A DNA stretch of 64,000 bases. Origin: a virus. The number at the start of each line of letters is the position of its first letter. Position 1 is the stretch's first letter. Shown here one piece after another: positions 6,388 through 35,638 of this stretch. Position numbers and translations under genes: made by a program. The notes under the pieces were generated by a model. It searched no databases. It was not told the DNA's origin and saw only the letters and a program-made list of their open reading frames with translations. The DNA is taken from the IMG/VR virus record IMGVR_UViG_3300045988_123818; one strand, written 5' to 3'.

Positions 6388-6423
6388 ATATTTTCCTTTC
6401 CTTCGGTGTTACAACACCTCACA

Positions 6424-7029
6424 TCAAAACGGATTCAAGTGTTTCCTAATCGTTCCCGGCAACACCCTACTGCTCAGTTCTTTTATCACCTTCTCTCCGT
6501 CCTCCAAGTTTTTCCCCCTGTCTATCGTTCTCTGGTCTCTCGATGTTAACGTGTTGGAGAGATATTCAAACAACGCCCCATCTACCAAATACTTATGAAT
6601 GGCTTGCACCAACGCATCATACACCGTCGCATCCCAATAATCCGGCATCACCAGTATTATCTCTTTCTCCTGCCATTCTTTCAGTTCGTTCATTCTCGCC
6701 ACTCCTTCTGGTTTAGCCACATAAGCCGACAGTATTCTTTCCACCGACGCTATATATTGGTCAAACCATCTGTAGAACATTGGTCTGTGCGAGTCCGCTT
6801 CCGATGTTGTCACCTCAGTCTCTTCCTGTGTCTTCCTCGTAGCCTTGTCTATCAATGATGTCACAGAGTCCACATCAAACAACAGTTGGTCTGCCTGTAT
6901 GTAGATATGCTTTATGCTATGCCCGTATGCTCTCCTTGGTGGTTGTGGCTCAAGGGGGTTAGCTACTGGTATCCACCCTCTCTGTCTTGAAGCTACAAAC
7001 GGATGCAATTCCGAAAAATCCTTTTTCAT
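6424..7029 (-). CDS. hypothetical protein (201 aa)
   Basis: Long ORF in the packed virion operon. Confidence 0.7.
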   Translation of the reverse strand: MKKDFSELHPFVASRQRGWIPVANPLEPQPPRRAYGHSIKHIYIQADQLLFDVDSVTSLIDKATRKTQEETEVTTSEADSHRPMFYRWFDQYIASVERILSAYVAKPEGVARMNELKEWQEKEIILVMPDYWDATVYDALVQAIHKYLVDGALFEYLSNTLTSRDQRTIDRGKNLEDGEKVIKELSSRVLPGTIRKHLNPF

Positions 7030-7042
7030 ATCCTTTTTGTTT

Positions 7043-7831
7043 TTAGTAGTACTCCTTCGACACTATCACCGTAAACTCCACATACACATTGTCTGTATGT
7101 CGTGAGAATAGTCTTATCCTCGCTACTCCCGTGTTACGTGGCACAAGCTCAAATGTCATTGGTGCTCTGTAGCGCATTATCTCCACTATGCTTGGGTCTT
7201 CCGAGCGTGCTTCAATGTCGTCTACTGCTCCTGCGTCAATACTGTACGACACCGTGGCATTCTCGTCCACACGTATTATTATCTCGCCCTCCGCGTCTGT
7301 TCCGTCTACCTTTGCAGTTAGTGTTGTGGGATATTTTATTGTTGGTACTGTTGGTGCCGACAATACAAAGCAGCGTCTTATCGCAATCTCGTCCGCTGCT
7401 ACTGCCGACTGATACGGTGCTGCCTGGTTTAGGTTGCCCAACTTTACCCACCATTCGTAGCACATTGTGTCCTCTACAAACTTGGATACAAGTCTTGCCA
7501 ATGTGTCTGTTAGTGATCCGTTGTATCTTCGCGACACGTTTAGCGTGAACTCTACTATGTCGTTTGTCTTGTCGTTGTAGTATATGGCATTGTCGCCTAT
7601 CGTCTGTGCTGTAGGCACGTAGTAGTCTACAAAGATTATCTTTGCTTTTTCGAGTGCTGTTGTCAGGTCATGGTCCAATGTGCGCTCGTGCACCTCTTCG
7701 TCTCCTGCTATCTCGAAGTATGGCGTTTTCTGCCCTGGCTGTGCTGCCTCGTCTATCTTGCCTTTAAGATAGGTAGCTGCCTTTACAGCCTCGATTATCA
7801 CGGATTTTATTATCTGGAATTTTATTATCAT
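7043..7831 (-). CDS. hypothetical virion protein with a possible Ig-like C-terminal beta domain
   Basis: 262-aa ORF. The C-terminal 90 aa have an alternating beta pattern (ATVSYSIDAG...VYVEFTVIV) reminiscent of Big_2 domains. This was not verified. Confidence 0.65.
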   Translation of the reverse strand: MIIKFQIIKSVIIEAVKAATYLKGKIDEAAQPGQKTPYFEIAGDEEVHERTLDHDLTTALEKAKIIFVDYYVPTAQTIGDNAIYYNDKTNDIVEFTLNVSRRYNGSLTDTLARLVSKFVEDTMCYEWWVKLGNLNQAAPYQSAVAADEIAIRRCFVLSAPTVPTIKYPTTLTAKVDGTDAEGEIIIRVDENATVSYSIDAGAVDDIEARSEDPSIVEIMRYRAPMTFELVPRNTGVARIRLFSRHTDNVYVEFTVIVSKEYY

Positions 7832-7856
7832 GGTGACTTACTGTTTTTGTTTATAC

Positions 7857-8354
7857 CTATAGTTCAACCGAGCCCACACAGTCCGCAAGCGTCTTGTCCG
7901 CACTGCCTGGCGGTGTCTTCGTAAATATCAGTCGTGTGGCTGCAAGTAGCTGTGCCTGCACGTCCGTAGCATATTTTCCAGCAAGGTCTGGCAGTACCAT
8001 CGCCAATACCGATTGCGTTACATAAGCAATGAGTAGTGATTTCACACTGTCTTGTGCTGCTCCTGATAGTGCATCGTTGCTTCGGGTAGTGTTCACAACG
8101 AACGCTATATATTCTGCTTTATGTCCTCCGGGCTTCTTCCCAATTTCATACCCAGACAACACTGGCGATAGATTTGATGTCACAAGCTGCGCTCCGTCTA
8201 TTATGCATTGTCGCATTACCGTGTCTTCCACACTTGATAGTGTTGACACCGAGAACAGCGTGTCGCCCTTCTGTGTGCTATGGTGTTTTCCTATGATGGA
8301 CAGTTGCCGTTTTACGGCTTCTTTCACATCTTCAAGATATATGGCTATATCCAT
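7857..8354 (-). CDS. hypothetical protein (165 aa)
   Basis: ORF packed between the portal candidate and the downstream genes. Confidence 0.7.
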   Translation of the reverse strand: MDIAIYLEDVKEAVKRQLSIIGKHHSTQKGDTLFSVSTLSSVEDTVMRQCIIDGAQLVTSNLSPVLSGYEIGKKPGGHKAEYIAFVVNTTRSNDALSGAAQDSVKSLLIAYVTQSVLAMVLPDLAGKYATDVQAQLLAATRLIFTKTPPGSADKTLADCVGSVEL

Positions 8355-8371
8355 ATTTTACATTTTTGATA

Positions 8372-10363
8372 TTATTGCATCAAGTATCCTTGCGCTTGTT
8401 CTACTGCCTGTTGGTTTGCCTCGGGCACTACTCCGTTCTGTGGCGCTTGCTGCCCCATTGCCTCTTGCTGCGCCCTTAGCTCTTCCATATTACTCTGCAC
8501 GTCCTGCAGCAGCTTGTCTGCAAACGGCTCATTCAGGTTCTGTAGATACTGTATGATGTTGATGGCTCCCTTGTCAAACAACATGTCAAGCTTGTCGTTT
8601 ACGTTGTTCTGATAGGTGGCTGTGGCAGCAGCGTTCTTGATAGAAATCTTGAACATTATGTCTCTTGCGCCCAGTCTGTCATACTCTATCGGGTATGTGC
8701 TATCGCTATTGAAGATGGGTCGGCCGTCCTCATAGTATTGTTTTATCGTCATGCACTTCTTCTGTGCAATATTTTCAGTAAACGATTCCATGTCTTTCAG
8801 TATCGAGTAGAGCGAGGTTGAGGCATTCTGCGACTCTTGCGCATATCTCGAGGCCGATGTTCCAGCCGTTGGCGTCTTGCCTTGCAATGCGCCCGACACA
8901 TTCGACACTTCGCGCATCAGGTTCAGCTCCATCTGCAACAGCTCGTTTGTTCCAAGATTCACGGCGTTCGACGTGATAATGTCTGGCCTTGAGTTTGGCA
9001 GCGTTGCCTTTGGCGTGTAGAATATCATTCCGTCATACTCCGTCGCTTGCTCGGCAAACTCGTCTGGTGTCATTCCGTCCAATACCTGTGTAGGGATAAG
9101 CCATACACCCTTGGCCGACGAGCGTATTGCCATGTCGTTCATTATTATCAAACGGTTTATGTATCTCTGCTGGTCTATCACGTTTGCCATGAACGGATGT
9201 ATTTCTCCGTTGATGTACGGATAGAGCTTTATCGTGAATGGATGCGACTTAAAATCGTATGGCGTCTCTCCGCTACATAGCACGGTTCCGTCTGGTGCCA
9301 TAAACGTGTAGTACCAATACTTGTCTGCCACTTTCTTTGCCGTGATATAGGCTCTGTCTTCTGGCGGTACTCCCATCAGGTCATACTGCTCCTTTCTCTT
9401 CACATTCTTCGCGTTTAGCTCTGCTATCAACACTTTGTCGTCACATTCTATGCGGAAGTAGGCATCACTTTCGTTTTTCGCTATCGGGTCGTAGCATTGG
9501 TATCTGTATTTCGTTTCAGTCGTCCACGCTTCTATTACTCTCACGTATCGTCCGCGCTTCGACGGTATATCAAATGATATGTTCGACAGGTCGTTTGTGT
9601 CGTTGTGCATAGTTCCTTCCGTCTGACTGTCGTCTGGGTCTATGTCGAATATCCTGTTCAGGTCGTCTATACTAAGTCCGTACTCGTCTTTCGCAAATTT
9701 CTTGTACAGGTCGTTTATAGACTCGTCATGCAGCACGCCTATCAGCGACAGGTCAAGGTGTCTTGGGTCTGATCCTCCTTCCCAAAACACATAGTTTGGC
9801 TCTATGTAGTCTGTCCACGAGTCTTCTATCTCCTGTGTTCTGTCTTCGTATGTCTCTCGACACACCATTACTCCTCCTACAAGGTAGTCTTCAAGCGCGT
9901 GCTTCAACAATATCTCCATCTGTGTGTTTTGCCAGTTGCATTGCATAGTGGCAGACATCATATCCGAGAGTGACTGTGAAGAGCGTGTTCTTGCAAAGCA
10001 CACTGGCTCTGTACCTTGCTTTGCGTACATTCCCACAAGTGTGTTCAATATCGACACCATCACATTGTTCGACAACGGCACAGAGCCTTTTCTTTTCAGA
10101 TATTCTCTTTCCGTCATGTCATAGTAGTATCCGTTCTTGTACACTCTCACTGTGTCGCCCCATTGGTCGCCGTAGCAGTATCTCTTGGCCCTGTCTCTAA
10201 CCATACGCACAGCCTCCAGGTTGTTCCATGCCTGCCAACATCGCTGCAGCAGCTCATAGTCCGTCTTCTTGCCCGACTGTCTCTCCTTACGTCTCCGTAC
10301 GGTGTCAAACGTCTTGCCCGAAGTCGGCATTACACGTGATAAGGTGGGTATATTTTTCTGCAT
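8372..10363 (-). CDS. portal protein candidate (663 aa)
   Basis: Supported by size, by being the first gene of the operon divergent from scaffold and capsid, and by a Gln-rich helical C-terminus. There is no motif-level proof. Confidence 0.6.
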   Translation of the reverse strand: MQKNIPTLSRVMPTSGKTFDTVRRRKERQSGKKTDYELLQRCWQAWNNLEAVRMVRDRAKRYCYGDQWGDTVRVYKNGYYYDMTEREYLKRKGSVPLSNNVMVSILNTLVGMYAKQGTEPVCFARTRSSQSLSDMMSATMQCNWQNTQMEILLKHALEDYLVGGVMVCRETYEDRTQEIEDSWTDYIEPNYVFWEGGSDPRHLDLSLIGVLHDESINDLYKKFAKDEYGLSIDDLNRIFDIDPDDSQTEGTMHNDTNDLSNISFDIPSKRGRYVRVIEAWTTETKYRYQCYDPIAKNESDAYFRIECDDKVLIAELNAKNVKRKEQYDLMGVPPEDRAYITAKKVADKYWYYTFMAPDGTVLCSGETPYDFKSHPFTIKLYPYINGEIHPFMANVIDQQRYINRLIIMNDMAIRSSAKGVWLIPTQVLDGMTPDEFAEQATEYDGMIFYTPKATLPNSRPDIITSNAVNLGTNELLQMELNLMREVSNVSGALQGKTPTAGTSASRYAQESQNASTSLYSILKDMESFTENIAQKKCMTIKQYYEDGRPIFNSDSTYPIEYDRLGARDIMFKISIKNAAATATYQNNVNDKLDMLFDKGAINIIQYLQNLNEPFADKLLQDVQSNMEELRAQQEAMGQQAPQNGVVPEANQQAVEQAQGYLMQ

Positions 10364-10423
10364 ATTTCTATCTTACGTCATTGTCTATCAGCGCAAAAAT
10401 ACTCTAAATGACAGCGCGAAATG

Positions 10424-10464
10424 CCGTGTTTCGTCTGTCCCAAAGTTGCAGGTACGAAACACGG
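10424..10464. promoter_or_regulatory. perfect 11-bp inverted repeat in the portal/scaffold divergent region
   Basis: ccgtgtttcgt (10424-10434) pairs with acgaaacacgg (10454-10464), separated by a 19-nt spacer. Confidence 0.4.
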
Positions 10465-10563
10465 AAAAACGGACGCAAAAAATCGGGATATTCGCAAGCG
10501 TAAACAAAAATATGTAGATACCCGGAAAAGGTAAAGAATAATACACCTTATTATATATAAGAT

Positions 10564-11325
10564 ATGGCAGAAGAAAATAATGAAATCAAGACCGAAGCTC
10601 AGTCGCAAGCAGCGGCTACAGCTCCACCCGTAGACGACCGACCCAACCGCAAGGCTTTCTCCGAGCGTTTTGCCAAACGCCACAAGGACATCGACTTTGA
10701 GGACAAGGAGGCTCGCTACGCTGCTATGAACGACGATGCCGACGCCCTATCCCGATATGAGGAGGATGGCAAGGCTCTCAGCGAAATGTTCGACAACAAC
10801 CGTTGGGTTGCAGCTATGGCTATGGACCTTACAAAGAATCCCGACCTAAACCCTATCACATGGATAGCTTCTCATGGCATCGACATCGGCGCTGCTATGC
10901 AGGACGAGAAGATAGGCAAGGAGGTGGCTCAGCAGATTGCCGACTTTCAGCAGAAGAAGGCTGACGAGGAAAACCACGAAAAAGAACTTGTTGCCAACCT
11001 CCAAAAGTCGGCCGATGCTATGGACGAACTTGGTCTTGACGACGACGCTAAAGCCGACCTTTGGGAGAGTTTCTTCAAGGTTATCGGCGACGCCGAGGAT
11101 GGTATAGTCTCCACCGAGACGTGGCAGCTCTTCAAAAACGCGCAAAACTACGACGCTGATGTGGCTTCCGCACGCGAGGAGGGTGCTATGCAAGGCCGTA
11201 ACGAAAAGATTCAGAACAAGGTCAAGCGTTCCGAAAAGACCGAAATTCCGCCTTCTCTCAGTACTAACGGTGGTGTGTCACCCACCAAAAAGAAGTCCAG
11301 TGGCTTCTGGGATGGTCTGGTTTAA
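10564..11325 (+). CDS. scaffolding protein candidate
   Basis: Acidic, helical 253-aa protein directly upstream of the capsid gene. Confidence 0.55.
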   Translation: MAEENNEIKTEAQSQAAATAPPVDDRPNRKAFSERFAKRHKDIDFEDKEARYAAMNDDADALSRYEEDGKALSEMFDNNRWVAAMAMDLTKNPDLNPITWIASHGIDIGAAMQDEKIGKEVAQQIADFQQKKADEENHEKELVANLQKSADAMDELGLDDDAKADLWESFFKVIGDAEDGIVSTETWQLFKNAQNYDADVASAREEGAMQGRNEKIQNKVKRSEKTEIPPSLSTNGGVSPTKKKSSGFWDGLV

Positions 11326-11372
11326 AAGTAAAACACATTTTATTATTTATTAATTTCTAAAATATCAATTAA

Positions 11373-13058
11373 ATGAAACACTATCGGTTTATTAATTTTA
11401 TTAAAAGCGGACGTTTCCTTACTTGGCTCTTACTTATGCTTCTCTCCGTTGTAACTGGCGGCTCGTCGCTCATGGCTGTTGGCGACAATGTTGCGCCTCA
11501 GATTGGCGACGAGGGTCCTGACCCGGCTTCCGCTGCTGAGGCTGCTGCCAACGAACCCGTTGAGCCTGGCAAGAGCGACCTCAACAGCCCCGGTGGCAAA
11601 AAGGATGGTCAGGATTTAACGGGCTCTCAGGCTTCATCCACCCAGCTCAAAGAGGGTGACATGATTGACGATGAATGGGATAATAACATTGTCAAATTCT
11701 ACCCATACAAGACTCCGCTTCTCAGTATCGCTCGACAGGTCGCTGGTAAGGTTCCTATCAAGAACTGGACTGCCAAACACATGCGCATCGGTGGCGAAAC
11801 TCTCGATGGTAAGACTACTGCTCCAATCACTGGTGGCGACACCATCGAGCTTAACTCTACCAACTTCTCTGGTTCTCTCCGTCCGTTCTACAAGTGCTCT
11901 ACTGTCTACGTTCCCGACGTTGAGGGCTACAAGGAAGGTTCTACTACCGTGCGCGAGGGCGTTCTTCAGCTCTACGTTATCGAGTCCAACGGCAAGAAGG
12001 TCACTCTCCAGGCTACCAACGGCAAGGCTAAGGACAATGGCACTCCTGCCGACGACCTTGACAGCATGACCTGCCCCGACATTCCTTCGGGCTCTGTCTT
12101 CCTCGTTGGCTCAACTGCCGCAAGCGAGTCTCAGCTTATGGTTCCTCCTGAGAACATGCAGCCTCGCGAGAAGGAGGTTTGTGTGCAGAAGAAGCTGCTC
12201 AACATTCTCTTCACTACCGACTACGAGAAAGTACAGACCAAGGTGCCTATCACCGTCAAAGACCTCAAGGCTGATGCTATCATGAAGTACAACCTCCGCG
12301 CTGAGCGTTCTTACTGGCTTGGTACTAAACGACGCTTCAAGGTGCTCACCGAGGATGGTGCTGTAGAGGACGTTTACATTGCTGAGGGCATCTTGTCTCA
12401 GATTACCAATAAGTATGCTATTGGCGACGTTCATGAGTGGGCCGATTGGATTGCTCTCTCTAAGCTTCAGTTCACCGACTTTGCCGAGAACAACCACGCT
12501 TACGTCTTCGCTGGCAAGAACTTCATCGAGCGCATGGAGAAGATGAAGATTGACAAGGATGGCAAGAACGACATCATCAATCACGACGAGTTCGACCTTA
12601 CTTTCAAGCGCATCAAGGACACATTCGGTACTTTCGATGTTGTTTGGGATCAGACTCTCGACCTTATGCACATGGAGGACTTTGCCGTTATCATCGACCT
12701 TAAGGCGAGTCGTCGCTACGTGCGTGTTGCCAACAAGGAGCGCACCAACGACATGTCTAAGGGTGCAGGTGCTATCCGCGACGCTAAGCGTTGGATTCAC
12801 GAGGAGGCCGATTGTATCGCTCTCCGTGGCTACAACTCTATACTTGTTGGTCCTGAGGAAAAGATTTCTAAGCTTGGCGGGTCCACTCTTACCACTATCA
12901 TCTCTGCTCCCAAACTCCCCGAGACTCCGTCTAACGGCATGAAGGTTGCCCTTACCGAGGACTACGTCTCTGGCGATTTTCAGTACGACAAGGGTACCGT
13001 CTACTACTACAACGGCACCAAGTGGGAACTCTACAGTGGTCAGGACGTGGCTGCATAA
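11373..13058 (+). CDS. major capsid protein candidate (561 aa) with an N-terminal hydrophobic and acidic extension
   Basis: Lies after the scaffold gene and is followed by a strong hairpin. The segment FYPYKTPLLSIARQV resembles the conserved N-terminal motif of HK97-fold coat proteins of the SU10/DUF5309 type. That comparison is from memory. Confidence 0.7.
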   Translation: MKHYRFINFIKSGRFLTWLLLMLLSVVTGGSSLMAVGDNVAPQIGDEGPDPASAAEAAANEPVEPGKSDLNSPGGKKDGQDLTGSQASSTQLKEGDMIDDEWDNNIVKFYPYKTPLLSIARQVAGKVPIKNWTAKHMRIGGETLDGKTTAPITGGDTIELNSTNFSGSLRPFYKCSTVYVPDVEGYKEGSTTVREGVLQLYVIESNGKKVTLQATNGKAKDNGTPADDLDSMTCPDIPSGSVFLVGSTAASESQLMVPPENMQPREKEVCVQKKLLNILFTTDYEKVQTKVPITVKDLKADAIMKYNLRAERSYWLGTKRRFKVLTEDGAVEDVYIAEGILSQITNKYAIGDVHEWADWIALSKLQFTDFAENNHAYVFAGKNFIERMEKMKIDKDGKNDIINHDEFDLTFKRIKDTFGTFDVVWDQTLDLMHMEDFAVIIDLKASRRYVRVANKERTNDMSKGAGAIRDAKRWIHEEADCIALRGYNSILVGPEEKISKLGGSTLTTIISAPKLPETPSNGMKVALTEDYVSGDFQYDKGTVYYYNGTKWELYSGQDVAA

Positions 13059-13091
13059 AGTTTTTTATTTCCGTAATAAATTAGTTGTCCC

Positions 13092-13146
13092 GATAAGTCC
13101 TCGCTGAGCAACGGCTTTGCTCGCTAATGTCTCAGCGAGGCTTATC
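13092..13146 (+). terminator. 16-bp hairpin after the capsid gene, with a competing inner hairpin
   Basis: gataagtcctcgctgag (13092-13108) pairs with ctcagcgaggcttatc (13131-13146) with one bulge, followed by ttt. An inner gagcaa/ttgctc stem overlaps the left arm. Confidence 0.55.
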
Positions 13147-13164
13147 TTTAAAATCAAAAACTCA

Positions 13165-13584: not shown

Positions 13585-13602
13585 TTTCTTAAAGCATTAG
13601 TT

Positions 13603-14271: not shown

Positions 14272-14273
14272 TT

Positions 14274-15596: not shown

Positions 15597-15779
15597 AAAA
15601 AGGTAGCGTTATACAATAAGGATACTACACCACAAGGCATGTACTTCATTAACCATATAACTTACTACCCATTGCAAAGATACTATATAATATTCAGTTT
15701 TACAAGAGTTTGAGTAATAAAATAAATATAAAATATAAAGTTTAACAAACATTAGTAATAAATTAACAAACAAACAATT

Positions 15780-27800: not shown

Positions 27801-30800
27801 CATCCATTCCGGGTGTATTTCCTTCACCTTTGTCAACGCGCGGTTTTCCAGTAGATACAGGAGTGTCGTTCTCACCGCCCGTTCCGCTCTCTCGCTCTCC
27901 GGGTGTAGTTCGTTCGCCGTCTGTTCTATCCACTGGTCCATCAGGTCCTCCGCCTTCTCGTCCTCGTCCCAATCCCAATTCTTGGCTGCCTCCAGTATTG
28001 GGAGCATCCAACTGTGTTCCGTCTTTTGTTCCGCTATTGTCGGGAACATTCTCATGTCTACTTCTAACATCGTTCCAAATTTTAAAGTAAGAAATTGCGT
28101 TAATTATATTGCCCTTGTCGCCACGCAAGTATGCGAGTGCGGCAGGTATCAACTCTTTGTTCTCCTCAGAAGTCAGCTCGTTTATCTCTGTTTCCGTAAG
28201 AGGATTCTTCGATGATACGGCTTCTCGTTCCTCCAAGTCCATCTGTTCCCAAGGCTTGTCTATCTTCTCGGCTTCTGCCTTGCCTACTTCCTCGCCAAGA
28301 ATCTTTCCTATCTCTCGACCGATAATCCTGCGTCGCTCCACCAAGCCAATACCGTTTCCTCTCAGCTTGGTTTCCATCGCCTGTTTCATCTTCTCTGTAG
28401 CACGCTTTATATCAGAAGCGTCGCCACTCTCCTTTGCCTTCGCCAGTTCCTCCTTAGCCTTCTGCACCTGCTCGTCCTTATACATTTCTGCAGTATGCGC
28501 CAACCAAGCCAACGGATTTGTCTTCGAAGGTTCCTCCTTTGTCTTCTCACCCTTCGGGTCTATAGCGTCTTTTATATCGCCCTTCGGTGTTACAACACTA
28601 TCGGATTTTTCACTTTTCTCTTTTCCCTTTTCACTCTCCCTCTTGACAGCCTTGTCTACTTCTCGCTGTCCTTCTGCTGGTTCGTTTCCTCCTGGTGCTT
28701 GCGGTTCAGTTCCCTCAGAGCTGCCAGCATCGCCATTTCCTTCTTTGCTTGAATGTCTTGTTTCATAGTCTTTCCAATTTCTAAGTTTTAAAAATTCGTT
28801 TACAAAATCTTCCTTTGTAGGCCTCTCGCCAAACATTTCCGCCTGACTGGCATCCGCATAATGAGCTGCATTACGGTTATATGCCATCATCAGCTCACGG
28901 AAGTCCTCAACCTTACCCTCCAGAGCAAGAGCGATAGCCTGAGATATAGGGTCAAATCTGTCCGCAGCGTTCTCGCCAAACATAGCAGGAGTGCGCAAGT
29001 ATGCGTCCACACCGCTTCCGCCTTGACGAGCTTCATATACCAACTGCACAGCCTTGTCTATCTCCTTCATCAGAGCATAGTCGCCAAGTTTCATGTTGTC
29101 TGTCACAGCACGGATGCCATTCAGAGCCTTTGTCTTAAGCATTCCGTCAACGCCCATCATACGGATAGTGTTTTCTGAGAACACGCTGCCAAGCAACAGA
29201 TTCTTCACGAAGTCCTTGCCTGCTGCCGAGAGCTTGTCTTCACTCTCACGCAATCCGGCTACCTCGTTCAGACCAATCACGCCCTTATCTATTAAACGCT
29301 TTAGCAACGAGTTTATTGCTGTAGGATTGTTAAAGAATGCATCAAGATTACCGCTTCCCTCTATCTCTGATATAATAGTGCCTATCTCGTCTGCAGAAAG
29401 CTTCTTCGAGTTCGCCACTGCTTGCTGTGTATTGCCCTGTGTCTTCTTCTCGTTCTTGTTGAACTTGGCGAAGGTTGCCGTGTCATACTTCATCGGCTCG
29501 TCACTCACAAGAACAAGGCGCGGATGCTTTATTCCGCTCTGCTCAATCTGCTCTGCGGTGAAGCCGTAATTCTCTGCATTCTCCTTCAATGCTTCAAGAT
29601 AAGCACTGTCGGTACCGTTCTTTGCTGCCTTCTGTCCCGCCATCGTTCTGCCGTTACCGTCAACAACAATGCCGTCAGATGTCACAACCGGAACCTGGTC
29701 TACTGCCTGTCCGTCATACTTCATGGCTATCATATCAGTTACCAGCTGAGCCTGCTTGTCATTCTCATAGTCACGGTCATTGATAGTCCTGCCTTCTTCG
29801 TTCACGGGGAAACCATCACTCTTCTTATATCCGTCGTTGGCATTATGCGAAGGTGTCAGACTGTCTGCTTCAACAATCTCATAGTGTCCTCTTAGCTTGC
29901 TTCCGTCAGCCAATGTACGTGTACGCTTGTTGCCCACAATACGCTTACCGCTTTCAAACTTCTCACGAACAGCGCCTAAATTACCTGCTTCACTTACCGA
30001 ACCTTCTTCACCTGCACTACCTACCTTCTCCATTCCAGCCTTAACCTTATTCGCGGTCATTACCTTCTTGATATTGGTATATAGCTCCAGTTCTGCTTTG
30101 GCGGCATCAACCGCCTTCGTCTTCTGAGCCTCAGCTTCCTTGGCGTCGTTCAAGTCGCCCGTGTAATCCACCTTTATTTTTTCGGCTTCTTTCAGCATCT
30201 TCTCGGCTCTCTTTATCTGTCCGTCTACAGCAGCTTCTGCGTTCTCGCCAAACTGCGAAGACATCCACTCCGCTCCATGTTCGGGTGTCATTTGCGAGTA
30301 GTCAGCAGTCTCACGGCCTTTCGTGTCCTTCATCATCGGCACAGGTGACCCATCGGCAAATGTTAAAGTCTCGTTACTTCCATTGCCATTATCGGATGGA
30401 TTATTTTTTTCTCCTTCCCCTATAGGCTTTACATCTTCAACTCCAGGCGCCGACGCACCCTCCTTCGGTGTTACAACACTCTCAGTCTTAGTATCGGATT
30501 TTTCACTTTTCTCTTTTCCCTTTTCACTCTCAGCGTAAGCCACCGAGTTCTTCTCCTCCAACATCGTCTGATAGTTCTTGGCATAGTCCTCCGTCTTTTC
30601 CACATGGTCAAGCTGCACGTCCTTCTTGCTCACGAAGTCCATCTCCTTTGTATTCGGGTCAAGCACGCTAAGCATGTCGCCAACGCTTTCTCTCGCTCTA
30701 CCCTCATTATCAAAGGCAACATCGCCCGCTCCAACAATAAGTACTCTGCCATTGTTGTCCTTCACAAACAACATCTGGCCGCCATCCTGCTTCTCGCCGT

Positions 30801-33735
30801 TCAGCTCGCCCTTATAGCTCCATTGCTCCACATGCTTCTGCACGGTCTCAGCAATCTTCTGTTCAGTTCCGCGATACATGCCCACAGCCTTAGCCTTGGC
30901 GTTGATGTAGTCGGCAAAAGGTGCAAGCTGTTCCTGCGTCAGTCCCGAGTTTATCAGCTCCATGTATATCTGAGGTTCCGAAAGACCTTCCTTTGTCAGT
31001 CTCTCATACTCCTGCTTCAACACATCGTTGCTTTCCAAGGCTGCATTAAACGCCTTTTCGGCATTATTCATGTTGTTCAGCACCTCAGCCACAGCCTCGT
31101 TGTTAGGATTCTCCGTGCCAAGGTTATTCTCCTCAACCACGTCCTTGCCCTCTGTCTGCGACTGGTCGGGATGCAACGTTCCTTCCGGGAACTGCTCTCC
31201 CTCATAAGCCTTTCTCAGAGCCACACAAGCGTTCTGTTCTCCCTCGCTGCGCTTCAACGGGTCTTTATCCATAGCTGCCTTCAACTGTTCAGCAGTAAAG
31301 CCAAACGTTTCGGCTACAGTCTCCAAGGTTTCTTGCGCCACCTTCTCGTCCTTTATCTGAGCTGCACCATAGGCATTACCCAAACGTTGGTTTTCGCGTC
31401 TCAGTCTGAGTGAGTAAACTACAGAGTCTCGTTCGTCTTCAGTTTTGACGATATGTTCTGACAATAGCTCTCCATATTTACTATACTCGCTTACAGTGCC
31501 TCCTCCATAACCAATATACTCCATCATAGGACGTGACGAAGGAACCGTTCCCATAACCAAAGCAGAGAACTTAGCCTTTGTGTCCCAAGGTATTGTATTG
31601 TCTGCCATTATCTCATCATAGGCAGTCTTCACAAATTCAGCGTCCGTATCCTTATACGACTCCTCACCTTTCCCTTTGGCTGCGGTCTTCTTTGCTCGCA
31701 TCGCCCAAGATGTCAGACTTTCTTTTCTCGTCAGCGGATTGTCGTGTACGTCATATCCGTAGACAGACTCCTTGCGCTTCGGTGCAGACGCGCTTCCGAA
31801 CAGCTGTTCTTTCTCCTCATTAGTGAAAGTATATCCACCAAAGGCTGCTCTCTGTCCGTCAGATGTCATAAGGTTTTTAATGTTTCTCGCCACCATGTCA
31901 AGATAGCTTTCCTTCTTGCCATCCTTCGCATAACGCTTAGGCAGTCTTGCATGTGTCAGCTTCAAGGCTACAACATTGGCGCAAGCCTCAAGGTTTCCCT
32001 CTACGCTCAGCCAATCTGTATCATGTCCCTCTATCATCTTGGCAACATTACCACCCATGTGCATACCAACGCCTTCCATAGCCAACTGGAACACCTTGGC
32101 AGGAATACGCTTCACGCCACTCACATTATAGATTCCTGCACCTACAGCACCGCCAATGCCGCCCATAGTAGCCCAGCTTGCGCCCTCAGAAAGACCGCCC
32201 ATAGTCATAAGCTTCACGGTATTGCCAATAGAAGTATCATCGCCAGTAGAGTAGTTCTGCACGGCTGCATTCGTCGAACCGTACAGCACACCCGTCACGC
32301 CTTGACTCACAGCACCCGTTGCAGCCATTCTGACGATACGACCGCGCAATGACGTGTTCGCTATTCTTGCTGCCTGGGCTACTCCGTTACCCATAACCTT
32401 GCCTGCCACGGCTGCACCAGCCTTTCCTAATGCGCCAAACACAGGAGCGTCTGCAGCAAAGCTCAATGTTCCGCGTGCAACTCTCGCACCCATACCCGGC
32501 TTAACATAAGGATTTTCCCCGTTATCGGTCATAGCCATGCCTTGCTGAGCATACTGTCTCTGCTTCTTTGACATCATGCCCATCGACAAGATAGTGCCTA
32601 TCATCGAGTCGTTGACACCACGGATGATATATTCTGCCGTACTCTTAGGCATATTACGGCTCAATTCGCTCTTCTCAAACTCCTCAGCTATCTTTGCTTG
32701 CAAGCCAGGAGCTATATAATTCTTTACATAATCCTCTGGGTCGATACCTAACGAAGCTGCCTTTTCTACTATTTCCTTCTGCATCTTCGGGTCAGAGAAC
32801 AACCCAGCCATGTCTTTCTCGGCATTCTTGCTGAGCTGATTCATTAGCTTGTCAGGATCAAGGGCTTCATTGTAAGCCTTTCCTGCTGCCATATATGCAA
32901 ATGGAGAAGCCTTGCTCAAAGCATCTTCTGCTGCAACACCTTTAACTGTCGCATCCTTAAACATCTTTTGGATACTATTGTTTATATATCCGCCAAGCTG
33001 TTTGTCAACAAGCTGTCTGCTGCTTTCTTCCAACTCATCCTCCAACTGTCCCCTTGTCTTCACAAGGTTATTGTTCACGTCCTCGTTCCCAAGGTCAAAG
33101 GCAGGAGCATTCCTTCGTCTTATCTCACCCTCAGCATTTCTACCAGCCTCTTGTCCAGCCTGTTCCATTCTACGCTCCAGTGACTTCTGTGCTCTTCTCA
33201 CACCGCCTACCATCTGTTTTACAGCACCCGGCTTTGTATAGTCTATAGGCATCTGCTCTTCATCGCGTCTTTTCGAGGCGTCAGCCTCCCTAAGACCCTT
33301 CACAAGCTCACTCTCCTTACCCACAGACACAGAAGGCGCAGCAGCGCCCCTATTCAAAGGCTTACCACCCATAGCAAAGCTATCGGATTCTTCACTCTTC
33401 ACTCTTCCCTCTTCACTTTCACCTCCCCACTTCTCTTGCGCTACCCGCTCCTGTGCGCGTCCCAATGCAGAACTATAGGATTTTTCACTTTTCCCTTTTA
33501 CCTTTTCTCTTCTCACGGTTCTTCCCGTAAACAGATGAGCACCAAAGTCACCAACACGACTCGCATCCTTTACGCTCACATCGCCTCTTCGCCCTGTCTT
33601 TCGGTCTATCACCTCCATTCGAGCACCAGGAAATGCTTTTGCAAATCCCATCGGGTCCTTGTCATACGCTGTCTTGTCTACCGTATGCCTGTTACCTTTC
33701 GCATCCTTGAAATAATAATATCTATTGTCTGCCAT
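18823..33735 (-). CDS. giant polyvalent protein (4970 aa): Gly-zipper region, ParB-like, SNF2/DExH helicase, N6-adenine MTase, two HExxH zincins, C-terminal TM module
   Basis: VVDGNGRTMA (about 29650). GTGTGKT (about 27020), DESH (about 26740) and QIEGRTYRIGN (about 25380). EPSAGHG (about 24970) and NPPFG (about 24785). HEMIHEG (about 23340) and HETVGH (about 22625). The TM segment SAPFALALIMAAV (about 19900). Confidence 0.9.
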   Translation of the reverse strand: MADNRYYYFKDAKGNRHTVDKTAYDKDPMGFAKAFPGARMEVIDRKTGRRGDVSVKDASRVGDFGAHLFTGRTVRREKVKGKSEKSYSSALGRAQERVAQEKWGGESEEGRVKSEESDSFAMGGKPLNRGAAAPSVSVGKESELVKGLREADASKRRDEEQMPIDYTKPGAVKQMVGGVRRAQKSLERRMEQAGQEAGRNAEGEIRRRNAPAFDLGNEDVNNNLVKTRGQLEDELEESSRQLVDKQLGGYINNSIQKMFKDATVKGVAAEDALSKASPFAYMAAGKAYNEALDPDKLMNQLSKNAEKDMAGLFSDPKMQKEIVEKAASLGIDPEDYVKNYIAPGLQAKIAEEFEKSELSRNMPKSTAEYIIRGVNDSMIGTILSMGMMSKKQRQYAQQGMAMTDNGENPYVKPGMGARVARGTLSFAADAPVFGALGKAGAAVAGKVMGNGVAQAARIANTSLRGRIVRMAATGAVSQGVTGVLYGSTNAAVQNYSTGDDTSIGNTVKLMTMGGLSEGASWATMGGIGGAVGAGIYNVSGVKRIPAKVFQLAMEGVGMHMGGNVAKMIEGHDTDWLSVEGNLEACANVVALKLTHARLPKRYAKDGKKESYLDMVARNIKNLMTSDGQRAAFGGYTFTNEEKEQLFGSASAPKRKESVYGYDVHDNPLTRKESLTSWAMRAKKTAAKGKGEESYKDTDAEFVKTAYDEIMADNTIPWDTKAKFSALVMGTVPSSRPMMEYIGYGGGTVSEYSKYGELLSEHIVKTEDERDSVVYSLRLRRENQRLGNAYGAAQIKDEKVAQETLETVAETFGFTAEQLKAAMDKDPLKRSEGEQNACVALRKAYEGEQFPEGTLHPDQSQTEGKDVVEENNLGTENPNNEAVAEVLNNMNNAEKAFNAALESNDVLKQEYERLTKEGLSEPQIYMELINSGLTQEQLAPFADYINAKAKAVGMYRGTEQKIAETVQKHVEQWSYKGELNGEKQDGGQMLFVKDNNGRVLIVGAGDVAFDNEGRARESVGDMLSVLDPNTKEMDFVSKKDVQLDHVEKTEDYAKNYQTMLEEKNSVAYAESEKGKEKSEKSDTKTESVVTPKEGASAPGVEDVKPIGEGEKNNPSDNGNGSNETLTFADGSPVPMMKDTKGRETADYSQMTPEHGAEWMSSQFGENAEAAVDGQIKRAEKMLKEAEKIKVDYTGDLNDAKEAEAQKTKAVDAAKAELELYTNIKKVMTANKVKAGMEKVGSAGEEGSVSEAGNLGAVREKFESGKRIVGNKRTRTLADGSKLRGHYEIVEADSLTPSHNANDGYKKSDGFPVNEEGRTINDRDYENDKQAQLVTDMIAMKYDGQAVDQVPVVTSDGIVVDGNGRTMAGQKAAKNGTDSAYLEALKENAENYGFTAEQIEQSGIKHPRLVLVSDEPMKYDTATFAKFNKNEKKTQGNTQQAVANSKKLSADEIGTIISEIEGSGNLDAFFNNPTAINSLLKRLIDKGVIGLNEVAGLRESEDKLSAAGKDFVKNLLLGSVFSENTIRMMGVDGMLKTKALNGIRAVTDNMKLGDYALMKEIDKAVQLVYEARQGGSGVDAYLRTPAMFGENAADRFDPISQAIALALEGKVEDFRELMMAYNRNAAHYADASQAEMFGERPTKEDFVNEFLKLRNWKDYETRHSSKEGNGDAGSSEGTEPQAPGGNEPAEGQREVDKAVKRESEKGKEKSEKSDSVVTPKGDIKDAIDPKGEKTKEEPSKTNPLAWLAHTAEMYKDEQVQKAKEELAKAKESGDASDIKRATEKMKQAMETKLRGNGIGLVERRRIIGREIGKILGEEVGKAEAEKIDKPWEQMDLEEREAVSSKNPLTETEINELTSEENKELIPAALAYLRGDKGNIINAISYFKIWNDVRSRHENVPDNSGTKDGTQLDAPNTGGSQELGLGRGREGGGPDGPVDRTDGERTTPGERESGTGGENDTPVSTGKPRVDKGEGNTPGMDAVSAGSTDTRGGGGAGNEGNVPKRGGQGGGNGPLDPNAGRKPATKQGTHFPDSTSERLKQERAEYEQKKKDFWERWKKAGQGYVKIALTPFKKLNLSPEQIEMLPELFKMHLNGAVLKIKEGIYKFNEWKAAMRAEEGEELKMIGLSDDDVDRFIEDYWNTPYQMDGETHTIGEWAGIHGNEKLRNKLSEPLNDKYQRQMEAEPIKVKIGDKKNIEETLPYLLPQQQEDVLKAETQFFGKEHADREHAYGKGYMFTNGTGTGKTFTGLGIAKRLVKQGKGRILIVTPSQKKVSDWIKDGRNLNMEIRDLDSIAKERGTTATTESGEGVVITTFANFGVNKKLLETKWDAVIYDESHRIMENKNGAETARSMQHYMMTNRSENHCFLRLQETNADYQKMKSLSEQFNAERDKEVKRIQDEYKASHPSATARDISYATSKALPKEIINFTPGDYASFPKLGEIHSEFKKAFSHYINEVMPKLEAQAKSEWKDTKTIFLSATPFNTRENLDYAEGYIFKYPEEEKGGRMSGRTQFYLDHFGAAYKFRYGRLEQSTSNPEAVAKQEIAFSDYLLDTLGTMSGRIIDSPYDYSRDFPTVSPDHAEQFNQAVQDAVRGHGVLADAYRKTIGDYTYGSALFETMKVANIIERIKAHLDAGRKVVIFHRRVETKEPIKPPFALMLDRANYSISLMKPGEAKNEAIQAVRAFSRKYADLLKWEQTLDYSMPREQIAKVFGKDNVLFFSGKESSKVKDKAVDTFNDDNSGKNIIVIQEASGKEGISLHDKTGEHQRVCITLALPQSPITVLQIEGRTYRIGNKSNAIFEYPILGLNSEMMLFGEKFNNQVSTTENLALGSKARSLRDSFAKGILEHSGVVPIEQQGVGGKEFDAPKEQNADPYDDAVLDYYSNQKLNSRNREGVDYFPTPEPLGYKMVEWANMGEGDTAMEPSAGHGAIARYVPKGNRMTAIEPSQSLFTKLQLKAGGLGRKFVNTIFENYDISNKHDVVVMNPPFGTAGATAIAHLGKAFKHLEEGGRVVALIPRGSTDKKFDKWIEGEKTAVLRAEVELPDIVFEQAGTKVVCRVVVVDKISNEAMRAKAGHPEKWDLGGHYDKIEDFFEDLRDVEMPDRIIDTNAIMMKKSKQTVKDLEELKNVRVDFNEGGINVRVRGDWKDYSIPFDMEGYSAEQKKKFLGITYETFEQQERQTRNETSQAVIAELKKLTCKLAGMTEEEMQRYLKKKYEGKSVMYRVEHAAEVYNKAKGGSKGQRDGRVVPEDVDKKTSEGIEKKFDEEIGEVESDFDSKEEFMQAVSDKIFLASRYRKSVLENQKKQLENELRRKESNTGEDSERAGTGRLASVNADNKTTLQGHRNKAQDRIALAAINRELDYRRVRAENLRNTYGLSAGSEIGFGEVEKIFRQSNTSPELGKLFAQTRDVLKRLGVDFGVQDEINSGKLTSPMGYASPERDIRYSIDGLVKTSSSKVELPVTILHEMIHEGVNGAIHLVKSGKADGMLTQKQIEAVETISEIYDRAVGNQEKFRENNYGLEDEYEFAAQMADPRQRKALDLGVMDRVVNFAKELMRKGDRSVWERVKDAVKKLFEVSDKSKMDKAIEDILEDFNKTIDDAAMADVDENGWSYDKGVVTPEKTSGASNAMSERIIKTVEKVAKRTGGKVKMVNSVEEIENPKVRKDIESGKQVTGWYDEKTGEVHLYMPNIHDTYTAEKTVWHETVGHKGMRGLLGDKFDSYMRDLWMDLDNPINAELRAYVKEKMNMNHLGFYDAIEEFIAKSAEDGKGEPGFWNYIKNKVTDALHEIGYRVSPNVKDVKYMLWLAKNVQKHGDSPLWKLRAEAVRWKIEHEKTEYTKIEGGELYDNDGKSHDFENMSREEWLETTDGEIHYRTAPSAATALDRYHHALDRHSYMATEAFMDNMLSLKKLMEAIDPSIRKIEDVASSMNPYLMQNITEGKMSDKSKLFEIHYMEPLDKAMSSVLDSFDGKKVEDRIRNFNLYMIRKHGLERNRVLFVRDWIREERKVKSEESDSIDALETAWKGEKYDLRKKLDSGQIDLKEYYRQMDEWIVKNLDKDFKAEEHDYSGMHGLQGIADKKAPYDDAGAIDEVMNQEASMESMKKGSVADFWKKVKAATDYSVNSDYESGLISQITHDGVLGMFDWYVPLRKFDEATAEDVYGYVTEMGDPSNYIGTTLMNAKGRKSLSNVEILAQIGLMGNRAIRNGGQNTIKQAFARFVRNSGEQNLVKETKVWVEKIGTDRNGNDIWEEAYPKIPEGAEADEVAEIVDAFETDMRAKQAKGEAKSLSNSTDIGFKFQRAKDKSQHFVDVKIAGRTHRFVVLGNPRAAQALNGMLENGKASQKWLQTVTRWMAMASTSWSPEFVMRNIVRDAEFASSHVRAKEGGRYAKKWARYYGELNPLNVFYNEGAGRLKSMKMKDFKNGVGFGLYARYREGTLGNSKMERYFKEFMENGGETGFVQLFSMHDMEKSYKSIVEKESAKGAKKVVVNAVELLKKLGENVESLNEVAENMARFATYCTSRDLGRSAARSAYDAKEVSTNFNRHGSGDAIKSFKNGEMGDWQKARRNTYGFVAGYLRNYSMFFNAGIQSTNLLLKNIKRAPVGTTVAMTSAPFALALIMAAVNNAIIQNEDEKDRGNVKDPYGELPDYIRRNNLCIYVGNNKFVTVPLAIELRAFYSLGDLAAGQTFAQNVKSQRNMAMDAVGCMSQLFPVVDFLNNPNYEKSLENGVGMTTEGIAPTAIVPFIEWWLNNDWKGAPIRRTGDKTELNPAWQNAYNNVPARLVDLNKWVNAKTNNIAPGNPEMKGNEVLDWATDPSMLNHFFGSWSGGMGTFTQRTAGLGAKATTGKTDEIEVGDVPFLRSLFYTPREQSSMARTKAKWYNYKEEMEQTIANNDKLKSKNVPTMKRIENAAALEKFEGSPEQRKVNIIKNAEKRMRHWNTMRKKWADDKKQVDFANKNIEMIIQEAVEDLDKID

Positions 33736-33759
33736 ATTTATTTATCGTGTTTTTATATT

Positions 33760-35208
33760 CTACTTCACATACTGACTCCAGTTCGTTCCTTTACCAGTAG
33801 ATGTACCACCTTTGGCTTGTGCCTTCGGCTTACTGCCAGAGCCTTGCCATCTTATAGGGTTCGCGCCCTTGCGCTGTCCCCTAATCTGCTTGGCTTCACT
33901 CTTCGACACCCTCTTGGTCACATATCCAACCTTTCTGCCCGAAGTGTTCACGCCACGCTTGGCCTTGTCGCTCGTCCTGATGTCAGCATAGCCAAATCCG
34001 TCCCTGAACGTCTTTCTAAGCGACTCGCCACGGCTTGAAGCGTCAAGCAAGCCATAGCTAATGGCACTCTGAATAATCTTACTTGCTCGATCTGCACTTG
34101 GATTCACCATCTTGCCGTCACTTCCCTCATATCCATTCATAGCACGGTCGAGTTCACGCTGCTTCTGAGGAGTAATCATACCAAGATTACGCATTTCTGT
34201 CCAAGCCTGGGCTTCCTGCTGAGGCGTAAGCTGTTTCTTGCTTGCCAGTCTTCCGTATGGAGTGGCATATCCATAACCGCCTCCTACGCCGCCGCTGCTT
34301 CCCGAGCCTCCAGCCGCTTTTGCCATTGACAAAGCCAGTCTGCTCGCACTTAGTCTTTCAGTAGCCTTGTTGTGGCGTTTGGTTTCGCCTAACCTCTCAC
34401 CTGCCAACTTCAAGTTGCCTTCTTGTACCCCAAGCAAACCATCGCGATATGCCTTCAAGTCCTTAGCGTTCTGGTCTGCTCTCTTGTCAGCACTTTTCTT
34501 AAGCTCAACCATCTGCCCTTTATAAGCTCTGTCTGCATCTGCTGCATCCATCTTTATCTGCAAGTTGGCATTCTTATACGCAGCGTCAGCCTCAGCAGCA
34601 GCTTTTCTCGCACGTTCTGCCTTTCTCTTGTCAAGGTCTGCTTGCATCTCAGCAGTCGGATTATTAAACTTCTGTAGCGCAGCTCCCTTGGAAGTATTAT
34701 AGATGTTCCCCATGTGTCGTATTGCGTCAGCTAAAGTGGCTATGCGCATATTGTTTCTCGTCATGCGCTCGTCATAATCATCATCACTCTCGCCTTCACG
34801 CCTTCCTGGTCGCTTCTTCGACAATCCGCCAAGCCACTTAAAGAAACCACCATCCCTTTGACTATCGTCCTTCTCAAACACAGCAGTAACACCCTTATCA
34901 CCACCAACAGCACCCAAATCAACACCAACCAAAGGCTTAGAGTTAAGAGCGTAAGAGGATGGCATCCTTCCTTCCATGTCTCTCGGATTTGACGTCTGCC
35001 ACGATTGTTGAGCCTTACTGCCCTCAGTCACAGGTTCCCCGTTAGGTGACCATCCTACATTTACAGGCATATTCTCAAACGTAGTAGGTCGTTTACCACT
35101 AAACACATTAGCTGGTTGCTGAGGCTGTGCCAAAACACCAGGAGCCACAACACCAGGCTGTGTTACAACACCCTCCCTCTTCTCCTTATCGTCCAATACT
35201 GTGTTCAT
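33760..35208 (-). CDS. hypothetical protein (482 aa), Gly-rich with a coiled coil; candidate internal or ejection protein
   Basis: Long ORF immediately upstream of the giant gene in the same operon. Confidence 0.75.
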   Translation of the reverse strand: MNTVLDDKEKREGVVTQPGVVAPGVLAQPQQPANVFSGKRPTTFENMPVNVGWSPNGEPVTEGSKAQQSWQTSNPRDMEGRMPSSYALNSKPLVGVDLGAVGGDKGVTAVFEKDDSQRDGGFFKWLGGLSKKRPGRREGESDDDYDERMTRNNMRIATLADAIRHMGNIYNTSKGAALQKFNNPTAEMQADLDKRKAERARKAAAEADAAYKNANLQIKMDAADADRAYKGQMVELKKSADKRADQNAKDLKAYRDGLLGVQEGNLKLAGERLGETKRHNKATERLSASRLALSMAKAAGGSGSSGGVGGGYGYATPYGRLASKKQLTPQQEAQAWTEMRNLGMITPQKQRELDRAMNGYEGSDGKMVNPSADRASKIIQSAISYGLLDASSRGESLRKTFRDGFGYADIRTSDKAKRGVNTSGRKVGYVTKRVSKSEAKQIRGQRKGANPIRWQGSGSKPKAQAKGGTSTGKGTNWSQYVK

Positions 35209-35593
35209 AATCCTCCAAGTTTTTCTTCAACAAGTCAAACGCCTGACCAAGGGTATTGACAAACTTCTCCGCCTTTTCCCTACGCTTGTACTGAAATACT
35301 ATCTCCTTGTTCAGTACAGCAATCACCTCGCACTTCTCTGACATGCGCTTAGCGTTCTTCTTCTTTATCCTCTCTATCACCTTGTCCTTATACGCCAAAG
35401 CATTCTCGGCAGACTTCAAGCAACGTTCAAACCAGTCACGCTCCTTTGTCACACCAGCAAGAGCCGACTTCAAACGCTCAATCTCTGCTGCTTGCTCGTC
35501 AACGAGCGAATCCTTCAACAAACCCGCAGCCTCCATCACACGATTAACGTCTACACCTTTCTTCGCGTTTATATCAATCTTTTTCTTTCCCAT
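35186..35593 (-). CDS. hypothetical coiled-coil protein (135 aa)
   Basis: ORF with a 23-nt overlap onto the downstream gene. Confidence 0.7.
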   Translation of the reverse strand: MGKKKIDINAKKGVDVNRVMEAAGLLKDSLVDEQAAEIERLKSALAGVTKERDWFERCLKSAENALAYKDKVIERIKKKNAKRMSEKCEVIAVLNKEIVFQYKRREKAEKFVNTLGQAFDLLKKNLEDYEHSIGR

Positions 35594-35638
35594 AGTATAA
35601 TCTTTTTTATTATTTTCCTACATGCGTTACAACGCTCC

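Follow-up and report, generated by a model that had tools for sequence, protein, structure and literature searches.

The sites of P1 C1 and of RK2 KorA (GTTTAGCTAAAC) and KorB are 12-17 bp long and lie at approximately 7 to 17 or more places of a replicon, some of them intragenic, and place it under the global control of one protein; ParB-parS is another example of dispersed operators. Lambda nut sites control terminator read-through in long operons, and the nick sites of T5, phiKMV-like and tf/LUZ24-like phages are short consensus sequences that recur from a few to about a dozen times, always on the same strand whatever the coding direction. The PeSL elements of T4-type phages, which are promoter-plus-stem-loop cassettes of approximately 100 bp in early hyperplastic regions, have been linked to modular shuffling. 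Stoperators of Cluster A mycobacteriophages (L5 gp71, TipsytheTRex repressor) are 13-bp sites at many positions, including short intergenic spaces, which have one orientation, lose their function on reversal, vary in sequence among related phages and act on transcription elongation, not at promoters (PMC9283540). Here, we analyzed a 12-nt near-palindrome, GTGTTGTAACAC on the minus strand, in the IMG/VR virus record IMGVR_UViG_3300045988_123818 (64,000 nt, referred to as the window), for which the stoperators are the closest analogue and which may be filed as a variant of dispersed, oriented phage regulatory sites. To six copies described in an earlier note on this DNA, our analysis adds a seventh copy, the restriction of all copies to the late module, a strand preference kept strictly even against genes, and a different repeat that replaces the motif in a sister clade.

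Results

Seven copies of the motif on one strand

The whole window was searched for the 14-mer of the motif with up to two mismatches as well as for exact GYGTTACAACRC. When read on the minus strand, the element has the form R-GYGTTGTAACRC, for which the pattern search gave seven exact copies (sites A, B and D to H in Table 1), all on the strand encoding the operon that runs from a gp14-like gene to the gene of a giant polyvalent protein. On the plus strand, the 14-mer GGTGTTACAACACC is perfect at 6405-6418 and 22889-22902, matches at 13 of 14 positions at 28586-28599, 30467-30480 and 35159-35172, and takes the form GCGTTACAACGC at 35624-35635. These are the six copies of the earlier note, each of which was confirmed, although its count was incomplete for want of the copy at 13808-13819 (site G). 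Its statement that all copies share one orientation was borne out, not only at site G, which runs against the local gene, but also in approximately 19 related gut-virome genomes, where every perfect copy is on one strand and none is reversed. The longer CCTTCGGTGTTACAACAC is, as also stated there, common to three sites; two of these (28587 and 30468) are paralogous and not independent, because both lie in one duplicated Lys/Glu-rich linker. The 8-nt core GTTGTAAC alone has seven forward and three reverse copies in the window, the reverse ones being mostly imperfect.

Sites A and H are intergenic (A: 45-nt spacer, 3 nt past the stop of the gp14-like gene and 30 nt ahead of the ATG of a 135-amino acid (aa) gene; H: 18 nt ahead of the ATG of the terS-position gene, 6016-6387), and site B corresponds to codons 13-16 (GVVT) of the overlapping 482-aa gene. 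The linkers containing sites D, E and F divide the giant protein into N-terminal, ParB-like, SNF2 and LPD38 modules, and site G comes after a poly-Ser linker, where the gene strand reads SVTTL. In the window and its relatives alike, the sites were found in short post-stop spacers or disordered interdomain linkers, which are the few places tolerating a fixed 12-mer. Six of the seven window sites, and seven of the eight in the relative 079676, are sense to the local gene, and the inter-site spacing widens away from the gp14 end (0.46, 1.8, 2.9, 4.0, 5.7, 8.6 and 7.4 kb). At sites A and H, the upstream frame passes its stop (TGA or TAG) and meets TAA within the motif, giving tandem in-frame stops two to four codons apart at 6405-6426 and 35624-35641 on the minus strand.

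Enrichment and selection on the nucleotide sequence

Counting against shuffled controls, which the earlier note had proposed, gave 7 matches to GYGTTACAACRC versus 0.02 expected in dinucleotide-preserving shuffles of the window, in which the motif is also the commonest 10-mer. When all genes were shuffled among synonymous codons, 4 sense copies and 1 antisense copy were observed in coding sequence versus 0.07 and 0.001 expected, respectively (P<0.001). GTT is a minority Val codon (21%), and the giant protein has a fourth VVT, at aa 1350, that is encoded by other codons. Among the 55 TTGTAA hexamers of the window, flank complementarity was bimodal, with 3-4 paired flank bases at the seven sites and 0-1 at nearly all others. 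An alignment of all distinct sites from 45 nt upstream to 60 nt downstream revealed nothing else conserved except a purine at -1, and at site H the 12-mer is intact in four haplotypes that differ at 3-4 adjacent upstream bases and by a 30-nt indel in the downstream spacer. These comparisons show that the motif is maintained by selection at the DNA or RNA level and not at the protein level. The earlier note had likewise argued for a nucleic-acid-level function rather than chance, and the enrichment over k-mer and codon-aware expectation, together with conservation while the immediate flanks vary, sustains that claim. The translation (G/S)VVT(P/Q), on which it had partly relied, was confirmed, but the shared reading frame is weak evidence for such a function, because one alternative frame has TAA and another gives Cys-Cys.

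Conservation in related genomes

More than 100 related loci were collected from IMG/VR, and 17 contigs were re-assembled from them. In this comparison with related phages, another check proposed in the earlier note, the sites proved to be conserved at orthologous positions: each genome of a 'plus' clade (8 composite and 6 partial genomes) has 4-8 perfect copies there. Relatives have an eighth position, site C, approximately 300 nt into the giant open reading frame (ORF), which is absent from the window. A 'mid' clade has 1-4 perfect copies, namely F, G and H plus a second tail-block copy; two of its genomes lack the 8 codons at site F. All copies lie within approximately 31 kb, from the terS-position gene to the gp14-like gene, and in 079676, of which 68 kb are covered, a stretch of 31 kb holds the eight sites, the early half being free of them. 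That the copies are confined to the late module is an argument for a connection to late expression and not to processes acting on the whole genome. When IMG/VR was scanned for the 18-mer GTGTTGTAACACCGAAGG, the stretches among the matches listed, at least 20, all belonged to this phage family.

Replacement of the motif by GCCTT arrays in a sister clade

Five relatives with 86-94% portal identity (composites of IMGVR_UViG_3300045988_078208, _085924, _068999, _082671 and _094714, e.g. L075, L104, L086 and L166) have no hairpin motif and 5-15 arrays each, all on one strand, whereas the hairpin-bearing genomes have no such arrays. An array consists of two to four tandem 10-nt units, CTRRGCCTTW (e.g. 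CTGAGCCTTTCTAAGCCTTACTGAGCCTTTGG), and often opens with GGTAATGRGCCTTA and closes with GCCTTTGG. Within the giant ORF, arrays stand approximately 330 nt from its start (site C) and in the linkers of sites D and F, whose GVVTPEK gives way to the translated array sequence SLGLSKPTEPL; others occupy the spacer orthologous to that of site H, the position after the 135-aa gene (site B) and the spacer adjoining site G. In the array clade, the tail-plus-portal segment (approximately 20 kb; 10564-18756 plus 1198-10363 of the window, compared with 078208) is inverted, and for this reason 40-50% of the arrays are antisense to neighbouring genes. The spacer between TerL and terS is 3 nt long in the window versus 97 nt in 078208. 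The same arrays, mostly in spacers, were found in at least three unrelated gut-phage families (L170, L173, L185, L178, L182 and L168), where they stay co-oriented across blocks of opposite-strand genes. The substitution by arrays shows that the late module calls for an oriented element at intervals.

Regarding the array unit itself, it resembles the 16S rRNA 3' end (CCUUUCU), and three units give a stop codon in every frame. The tail and portal/terminase blocks have yet another arrangement in the Bacteroides phage BS-TP4.

Arm variants and the asymmetric centre

The form at site A, GCGTTGTAACGC (GCG..CGC), is a compensatory change of both arms and was found in all genomes having site A, so that the symmetry-preserving variant reported earlier at 35624 is real and fixed in at least 11 relatives. 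A second variant, GTGTTGTAGCAC, had separate origins at sites C and H; only on the operon-sense strand does it retain a wobble pair, U.G (or T.G). A third, GAGTTGTAACAC, breaks one pair and was seen once; variants at orthologous sites were few among the relatives compared. In approximately 19 genomes, the centre of the motif is GT at each of the 8-9 site positions, always on the same strand (P about 0.004 for a strand-fixed GT centre across 9 site positions). A dimer operator would have no strand preference and a free or self-complementary centre, whereas here symmetric arms enclose a strand-fixed GT. The invariant asymmetric centre, the wobble variants and the compensatory change argue against a symmetric duplex operator and point to a reader of one strand, either RNA or single-stranded DNA, or at any rate to polar recognition. 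The earlier proposal of a hairpin or dyad-symmetric binding site holds, while the GT centre speaks against a simple symmetric dimer site.

At site H, AACACUU upstream of the motif can pair with the left arm GAGGUGUU (6380-6450, minus strand), a structure that competes with the hairpin in the 71-nt fold at this site only.

Homology breaks near the sites

Three to four of the seven sites adjoin a homology break or an indel, versus 11.5% of random conserved 12-mers, and the ends of high-scoring segment pairs cluster close to the sites (P about 0.02). Site F is the sole exact mosaic junction, at which alternative left modules join the same right module, and at sites A, C and E the types of left and right flank are found in different combinations; no break lies within 64-170 nt of sites B and D. 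This coincidence is suggestive only, because linkers are natural junctions anyway. An exchange of a cassette bounded by A and B was rejected, since breaks in the identity profile appeared close to A, in three genomes, but not close to B. In the Lys/Glu-rich linkers of the giant protein, indels and changes of repeat number were seen directly beside motif copies, and the gene of this protein, which stands at the gp16 position, varies from approximately 13 to 17.8 kb among relatives.

Comparison with described elements

Like the stoperators, the motif is a short multi-copy site of a temperate phage that has one orientation and whose sequence differs between relatives. On the other hand, a stoperator is asymmetric, and the protein on it is a monomer carrying two DNA-binding domains, whereas this motif is near-palindromic with inverted arms of 5-6 bp; stoperators are distributed genome-wide and follow local transcription, whereas this motif is confined to the late module on one absolute strand, with most copies intragenic. 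No repressor combining a helix-turn-helix (HTH) with a Stoperator domain was found among the window genes scanned with Pfam and PHROGs. The motif may also resemble lambda nut (boxB bound by N) as a predicted small hairpin with a 5-bp stem that would be read on the transcript strand, with a phage-specific sequence and the logic of a cognate factor. However, nut occurs once per early operon, in leaders and with boxA, whereas here 7-8 mostly intragenic copies lie in late genes with neither an adjacent boxA-like element nor a leader position, and the same scans gave no N- or Q-like family match. The KorA site is a 12-bp palindrome of similar style, but the orientation of KorA and KorB sites is irrelevant, C1 sites are fully asymmetric and such sites are mainly at promoters, unlike the strand-fixed centre found here. 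Nick sites share the single-strand orientation regardless of coding, but their consensus sequences are not known to form hairpins or to be limited to a single temporal module. PeSL elements share the repeated stem-loops at gene boundaries but are not bare 12-mers inside late genes.

Several other identities were rejected. The copies are not intrinsic terminators with a GC-rich stem and a U tract: no T run follows any of them, and none was listed by a terminator scan that did find the terminator at 18779-18814. For sigma-70 promoters, Bacteroidetes promoters (-33 TTTG / -7 TAnnTTTG) and extracytoplasmic function (ECF)-like promoters (-35 TGTAAC), there was no second box at a fixed distance; TAnnTTTG was absent from the sites, and 5/7 copies are intragenic. 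A translational role, at which the purine-rich tract and start codon described in the earlier note might hint, was not supported: the distance from site H to the downstream ATG is 18 nt in the window but 48 nt in the mid clade, and the majority of copies have no start codon nearby. A translational operator at the start codon was rejected on the same grounds. A virion RNA polymerase with hairpin promoters, as in N4- or crAss-like phages, was excluded, as neither the giant protein nor an 887-aa protein has an RNA polymerase domain or DxDGD. No Rfam family at gathering score, tRNA or tmRNA was found anywhere in the window, and a literature search for the motif sequence returned only primers and unrelated matches.

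The phage and its late operon

The window comprises most of a podophage-like genome of approximately 72-75 kb, five of the seven sites lying in the operon of the gp14-like gene (Table 1). Megablast of bases 1-20000 found no close relative among cultured phages, the nearest being the temperate Bacteroides phages BS-TP4, BKO1-TP3 and BF1-TP2 (PMC12694917), with a portal identity of 34-37%. A relative with 86% portal identity was found in a Leyella (Prevotella) stercorea isolate assembly, and the phage, a gut Bacteroidota phage, is of Prevotella/Leyella type. A close relative has a tyrosine integrase, a GH19 endolysin and an excisionase-like HTH protein in approximately 7 kb absent from the window, and the phage is thus temperate. 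In the 1-kb region upstream of the operon, a candidate Bacteroidetes-type -7 box, TAAATTTG, is oriented into the operon at about 36994; this leader is conserved only in the clade having sites A-E. A Cro/CI-type HTH gene (37882-38175) points into the late operon. Further genes of the window encode RecT, an SbcC-like ATPase, NinG, Cro/CI-type HTH proteins and an iteron-bearing winged HTH protein.

Table 1. Positions of the motif copies, reverse cores and neighbouring features in the window
Feature	Position	Strand	Description
Site A	35624-35635	-	GCGTTGTAACGC; both arms differ together from the main form
Site B	35160-35171	-	GTGTTGTAACAC; 15 nt past the stop of the 135-aa gene
Site D	30468-30479	-	Lys/Glu-rich disordered linker of the 4970-aa ORF, aa 1087, SVVTPK; paralogue of E
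Site E	28587-28598	-	Giant-ORF linker, aa 1714, between ParB-like and SNF2 modules
Site F	22890-22901	-	Giant-ORF linker, aa 3613, between SNF2 and LPD38 modules
Site G	13808-13819	-	Perfect 12-mer within plus-strand virion gene 13603-14271; antisense to gene
Site H	6406-6417	-	36-nt spacer, 6 nt past the stop of gene 6424-7029
Reverse core	2562	+	CTGTTGTAACAG
Reverse core	11446	+	CCGTTGTAACTG
Reverse core	57117	+	GTGTTGTAACAA
Terminase-like gene	3874-6012		
Portal gene	8372-10363		
Intrinsic terminator	18779-18814	.	Bidirectional, strong, 14-bp stem; between giant ORF and convergent tail block
Giant polyvalent protein	18823-33735	-	4970 aa; ddrB-ParB (ParB-like domain at aa 1277-1399), SNF2 helicase and LPD38 domains
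Operon with five of seven sites	18823-36430	-	gp14-like, 135-aa and 482-aa genes and that of the 4970-aa ejected polyvalent protein
gp14-like gene (T7)	35639-36430	-	
Non-coding region of about 1 kb	36431-37507	-	Upstream of operon; candidate late promoter and leader

Some further features of the genome were observed. Four direct repeats of approximately 30 nt, AAAAGGTACT-N7-AAAGGAGGTC (about 36400-36545, minus strand), lie at the end of the 1-kb leader, directly upstream of and overlapping the annotated gp14-like start. An 11-bp inverted repeat, CCGTGTTTCGT / ACGAAACACGG, with a 19-nt loop (10424-10434 and 10454-10464) lies in the promoter region from which the portal and tail blocks diverge, and its arms contain the GTGTT/AACAC half-sites of the motif. 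Within a winged-HTH gene (53837-54415, minus strand), 11-nt tandem repeats, CAAACGGACAC, in three plus two copies (54125-54225) look like replication-origin iterons within an initiator gene. Accessory genes encode Tad2-like (anti-Thoeris; 50056-50565), PcfM/PcfK/PcfJ-like (40447-42341) and SPFH/Band 7 (56196-56978) proteins, PcfM/PcfK/PcfJ-like proteins being typical of conjugative elements. BS-TP4 (L188, PQ571277.1; 34756-35877 and 35987-37477) has a reverse transcriptase adjoining a pair of 110-nt repeats with 92% identity, which look like a diversity-generating retroelement targeting the end of a 2645-aa protein; the window has no such retroelement.

Discussion

We infer with confidence that the motif is a cis-element under selection and is read on a single strand, that the late module calls for it at intervals and holds it wherever a fixed sequence is tolerated, and that a different oriented repeat can take its functional place. 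It has the look of a directional signal. Our preferred, albeit tentative, reading is a strand-specific hairpin site read directionally along the late module, for elongation-coupled control like that of nut or stoperator sites. In this model, a factor with sequence specificity, carried by a machine travelling in one direction along the late module, would recognize a small hairpin (stem of 4-5 bp, loop UGUA) on one strand. This machine would most likely be RNA polymerase or its transcript, entering from the immunity/late-promoter side at approximately 37-38 kb, and the Cro/CI-type HTH gene pointing into the operon of a temperate phage would fit such a one-directional source of transcription. The copies, densest near the proposed entry point, would then be distributed elongation-control or 'punctuation' sites with either a go (nut/boxB-like) or a stop (stoperator-like) effect. 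The readout would presumably be through RNA or coupled to transcription. The compensatory and wobble variants would fit a hairpin on the operon-sense strand.

A number of observations weigh against this reading. The predicted hairpin (-5.8 kcal/mol) is equally stable on either strand and is not the dominant fold in its 71-nt context. Site G and the second tail-block copy of the mid clade are antisense to tail genes, and all arrays of the sister clade keep the giant-ORF strand despite the 40-50% that oppose their neighbouring genes. Because the strand is absolute across oppositely transcribed blocks, a transcription reading needs one transcript over the whole module, which would have to read through the strong terminator between sites F and G and run antisense through a whole gene block. 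No cognate protein was found by Pfam and PHROGs on the scanned window genes or by gene/motif co-occurrence, which gave only weak candidates (the block 45008-47372 with basic 121-aa and 117-aa proteins, and a small ORF at 10388-10546), and the alleles of the HTH gene at 37882-38175 do not track the motif type. Moreover, the motif is not essential to this phage type, because distant relatives, including the cultured BS-TP4, have neither motif nor array, nor any third motif type.

A less likely but serious alternative is that the motif is a polar signal at the DNA level that acts without transcription, such as a strand-specific nick, a single-stranded hairpin for priming or recombination, or a signal for a translocase, packaging or ejection motor. 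Orientation would in that case track the chromosome instead of the genes. Such a signal would fit an orientation that is absolute even at copies antisense to genes, for sister-clade arrays co-oriented despite the tail-plus-portal inversion and likewise in unrelated phages, and for the excess of breaks and the exact mosaic junction at F; the phage also encodes RecT, an SbcC-like ATPase and NinG, and its giant ejected protein has an SNF2 translocase and a ParB-like domain. However, replication, packaging, Chi-like or nick sites are expected genome-wide or near an end, and none lies in the early half of approximately 40 kb; arms of 5 bp cannot be extruded from a duplex; neither a nickase nor an HUH enzyme turned up among the genes scanned; and only one junction is exact, with B and D free of nearby breaks.

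A duplex operator of a dimeric phage regulator, dispersed to silence or organize the late module in the lysogen, is somewhat less probable again, though likewise a serious alternative. The strand-fixed central GT is difficult for it, because a symmetric dimer would be blind to GT versus AC, and the recurrent A-to-G variant loses duplex symmetry while keeping a one-strand wobble pair. In addition, five of the seven sites lie within genes and far from promoters, direct-repeat arrays rather than palindromes take the equivalent positions in the sister clade, and HTH alleles do not co-vary with the motif type. These points stand against the 12-14 bp dyad symmetry preserved by the two-sided arm change, the self-contained, operator-sized and clade-specific motif, as would suit a cognate protein, the several HTH proteins of this temperate phage, and the larger GTGTT/AACAC-arm inverted repeat in the divergent late promoter region.

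We consider it very improbable that the sites are recombination linkers, i.e. short conserved boundary sequences aiding in-frame module exchange between co-infecting relatives, including the shuffling of polyvalent domains. The partition of the giant protein into modules, the exchange of left modules exactly at F, the reassorted flanks at A, C and E, and the single reading frame of all giant-ORF copies would agree with this, but homologous recombination needs more than 12 nt, in most cases of reassorted flanks the divergence lies 25-50 nt from the motif or is a simple indel, deletions would be favoured between direct repeats, and linkers are natural junctions whether a motif is present or not. 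No better can be said of a selfish or neutral repeat spread or homogenized by strand-biased copying, perhaps along with the GCCTT arrays, even though the motif is clade-limited, with distant relatives lacking it, and the arrays are insertion-like, as in the TerL-terS spacer of 078208, and present in unrelated phages: no known mechanism copies a bare 12-mer into unrelated contexts, orthologous sites persist while their flanks change, and the same positions are held by two unrelated repeat families. Finally, chance, or a by-product of k-mer composition, codon usage and peptide repeats, deserves hardly any credence: although VVT or VTT is encoded by every coding copy, site B lies in a (PGVV)n-like stretch and the extra imperfect cores in the mid-clade tail-fibre gene are AVTT peptide repeats, both the dinucleotide and the synonymous-codon shuffles reject it, as do the minority Val codon, the differently encoded VVT at aa 1350 and the two intergenic copies.

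A broader proposal, which we regard as doubtful but worth stating, is that the hairpin and the CTRRGCCTTW arrays are interchangeable, strand-oriented punctuation repeats, which would mark the borders of genes and domains in the late module and be read in one direction by a machine that is linked to the host or carried by the phage, and that they represent an undescribed class of polar cis-element in Bacteroidota phages. The occurrence of two unrelated families at the same positions, one of them recurring in unrelated gut phages, suggests a general and maybe host-linked rule. If this is true, such repeats may also mark points where giant polyvalent proteins reshuffle, and since the sites delimit modules of the 4970-aa protein, they may help to explain how polyvalent proteins are assembled and diversified. 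To our knowledge, the control of late genes in temperate Bacteroidota phages is essentially unknown, and a short, oriented, clade-specific site of the late module provides a concrete handle on it.

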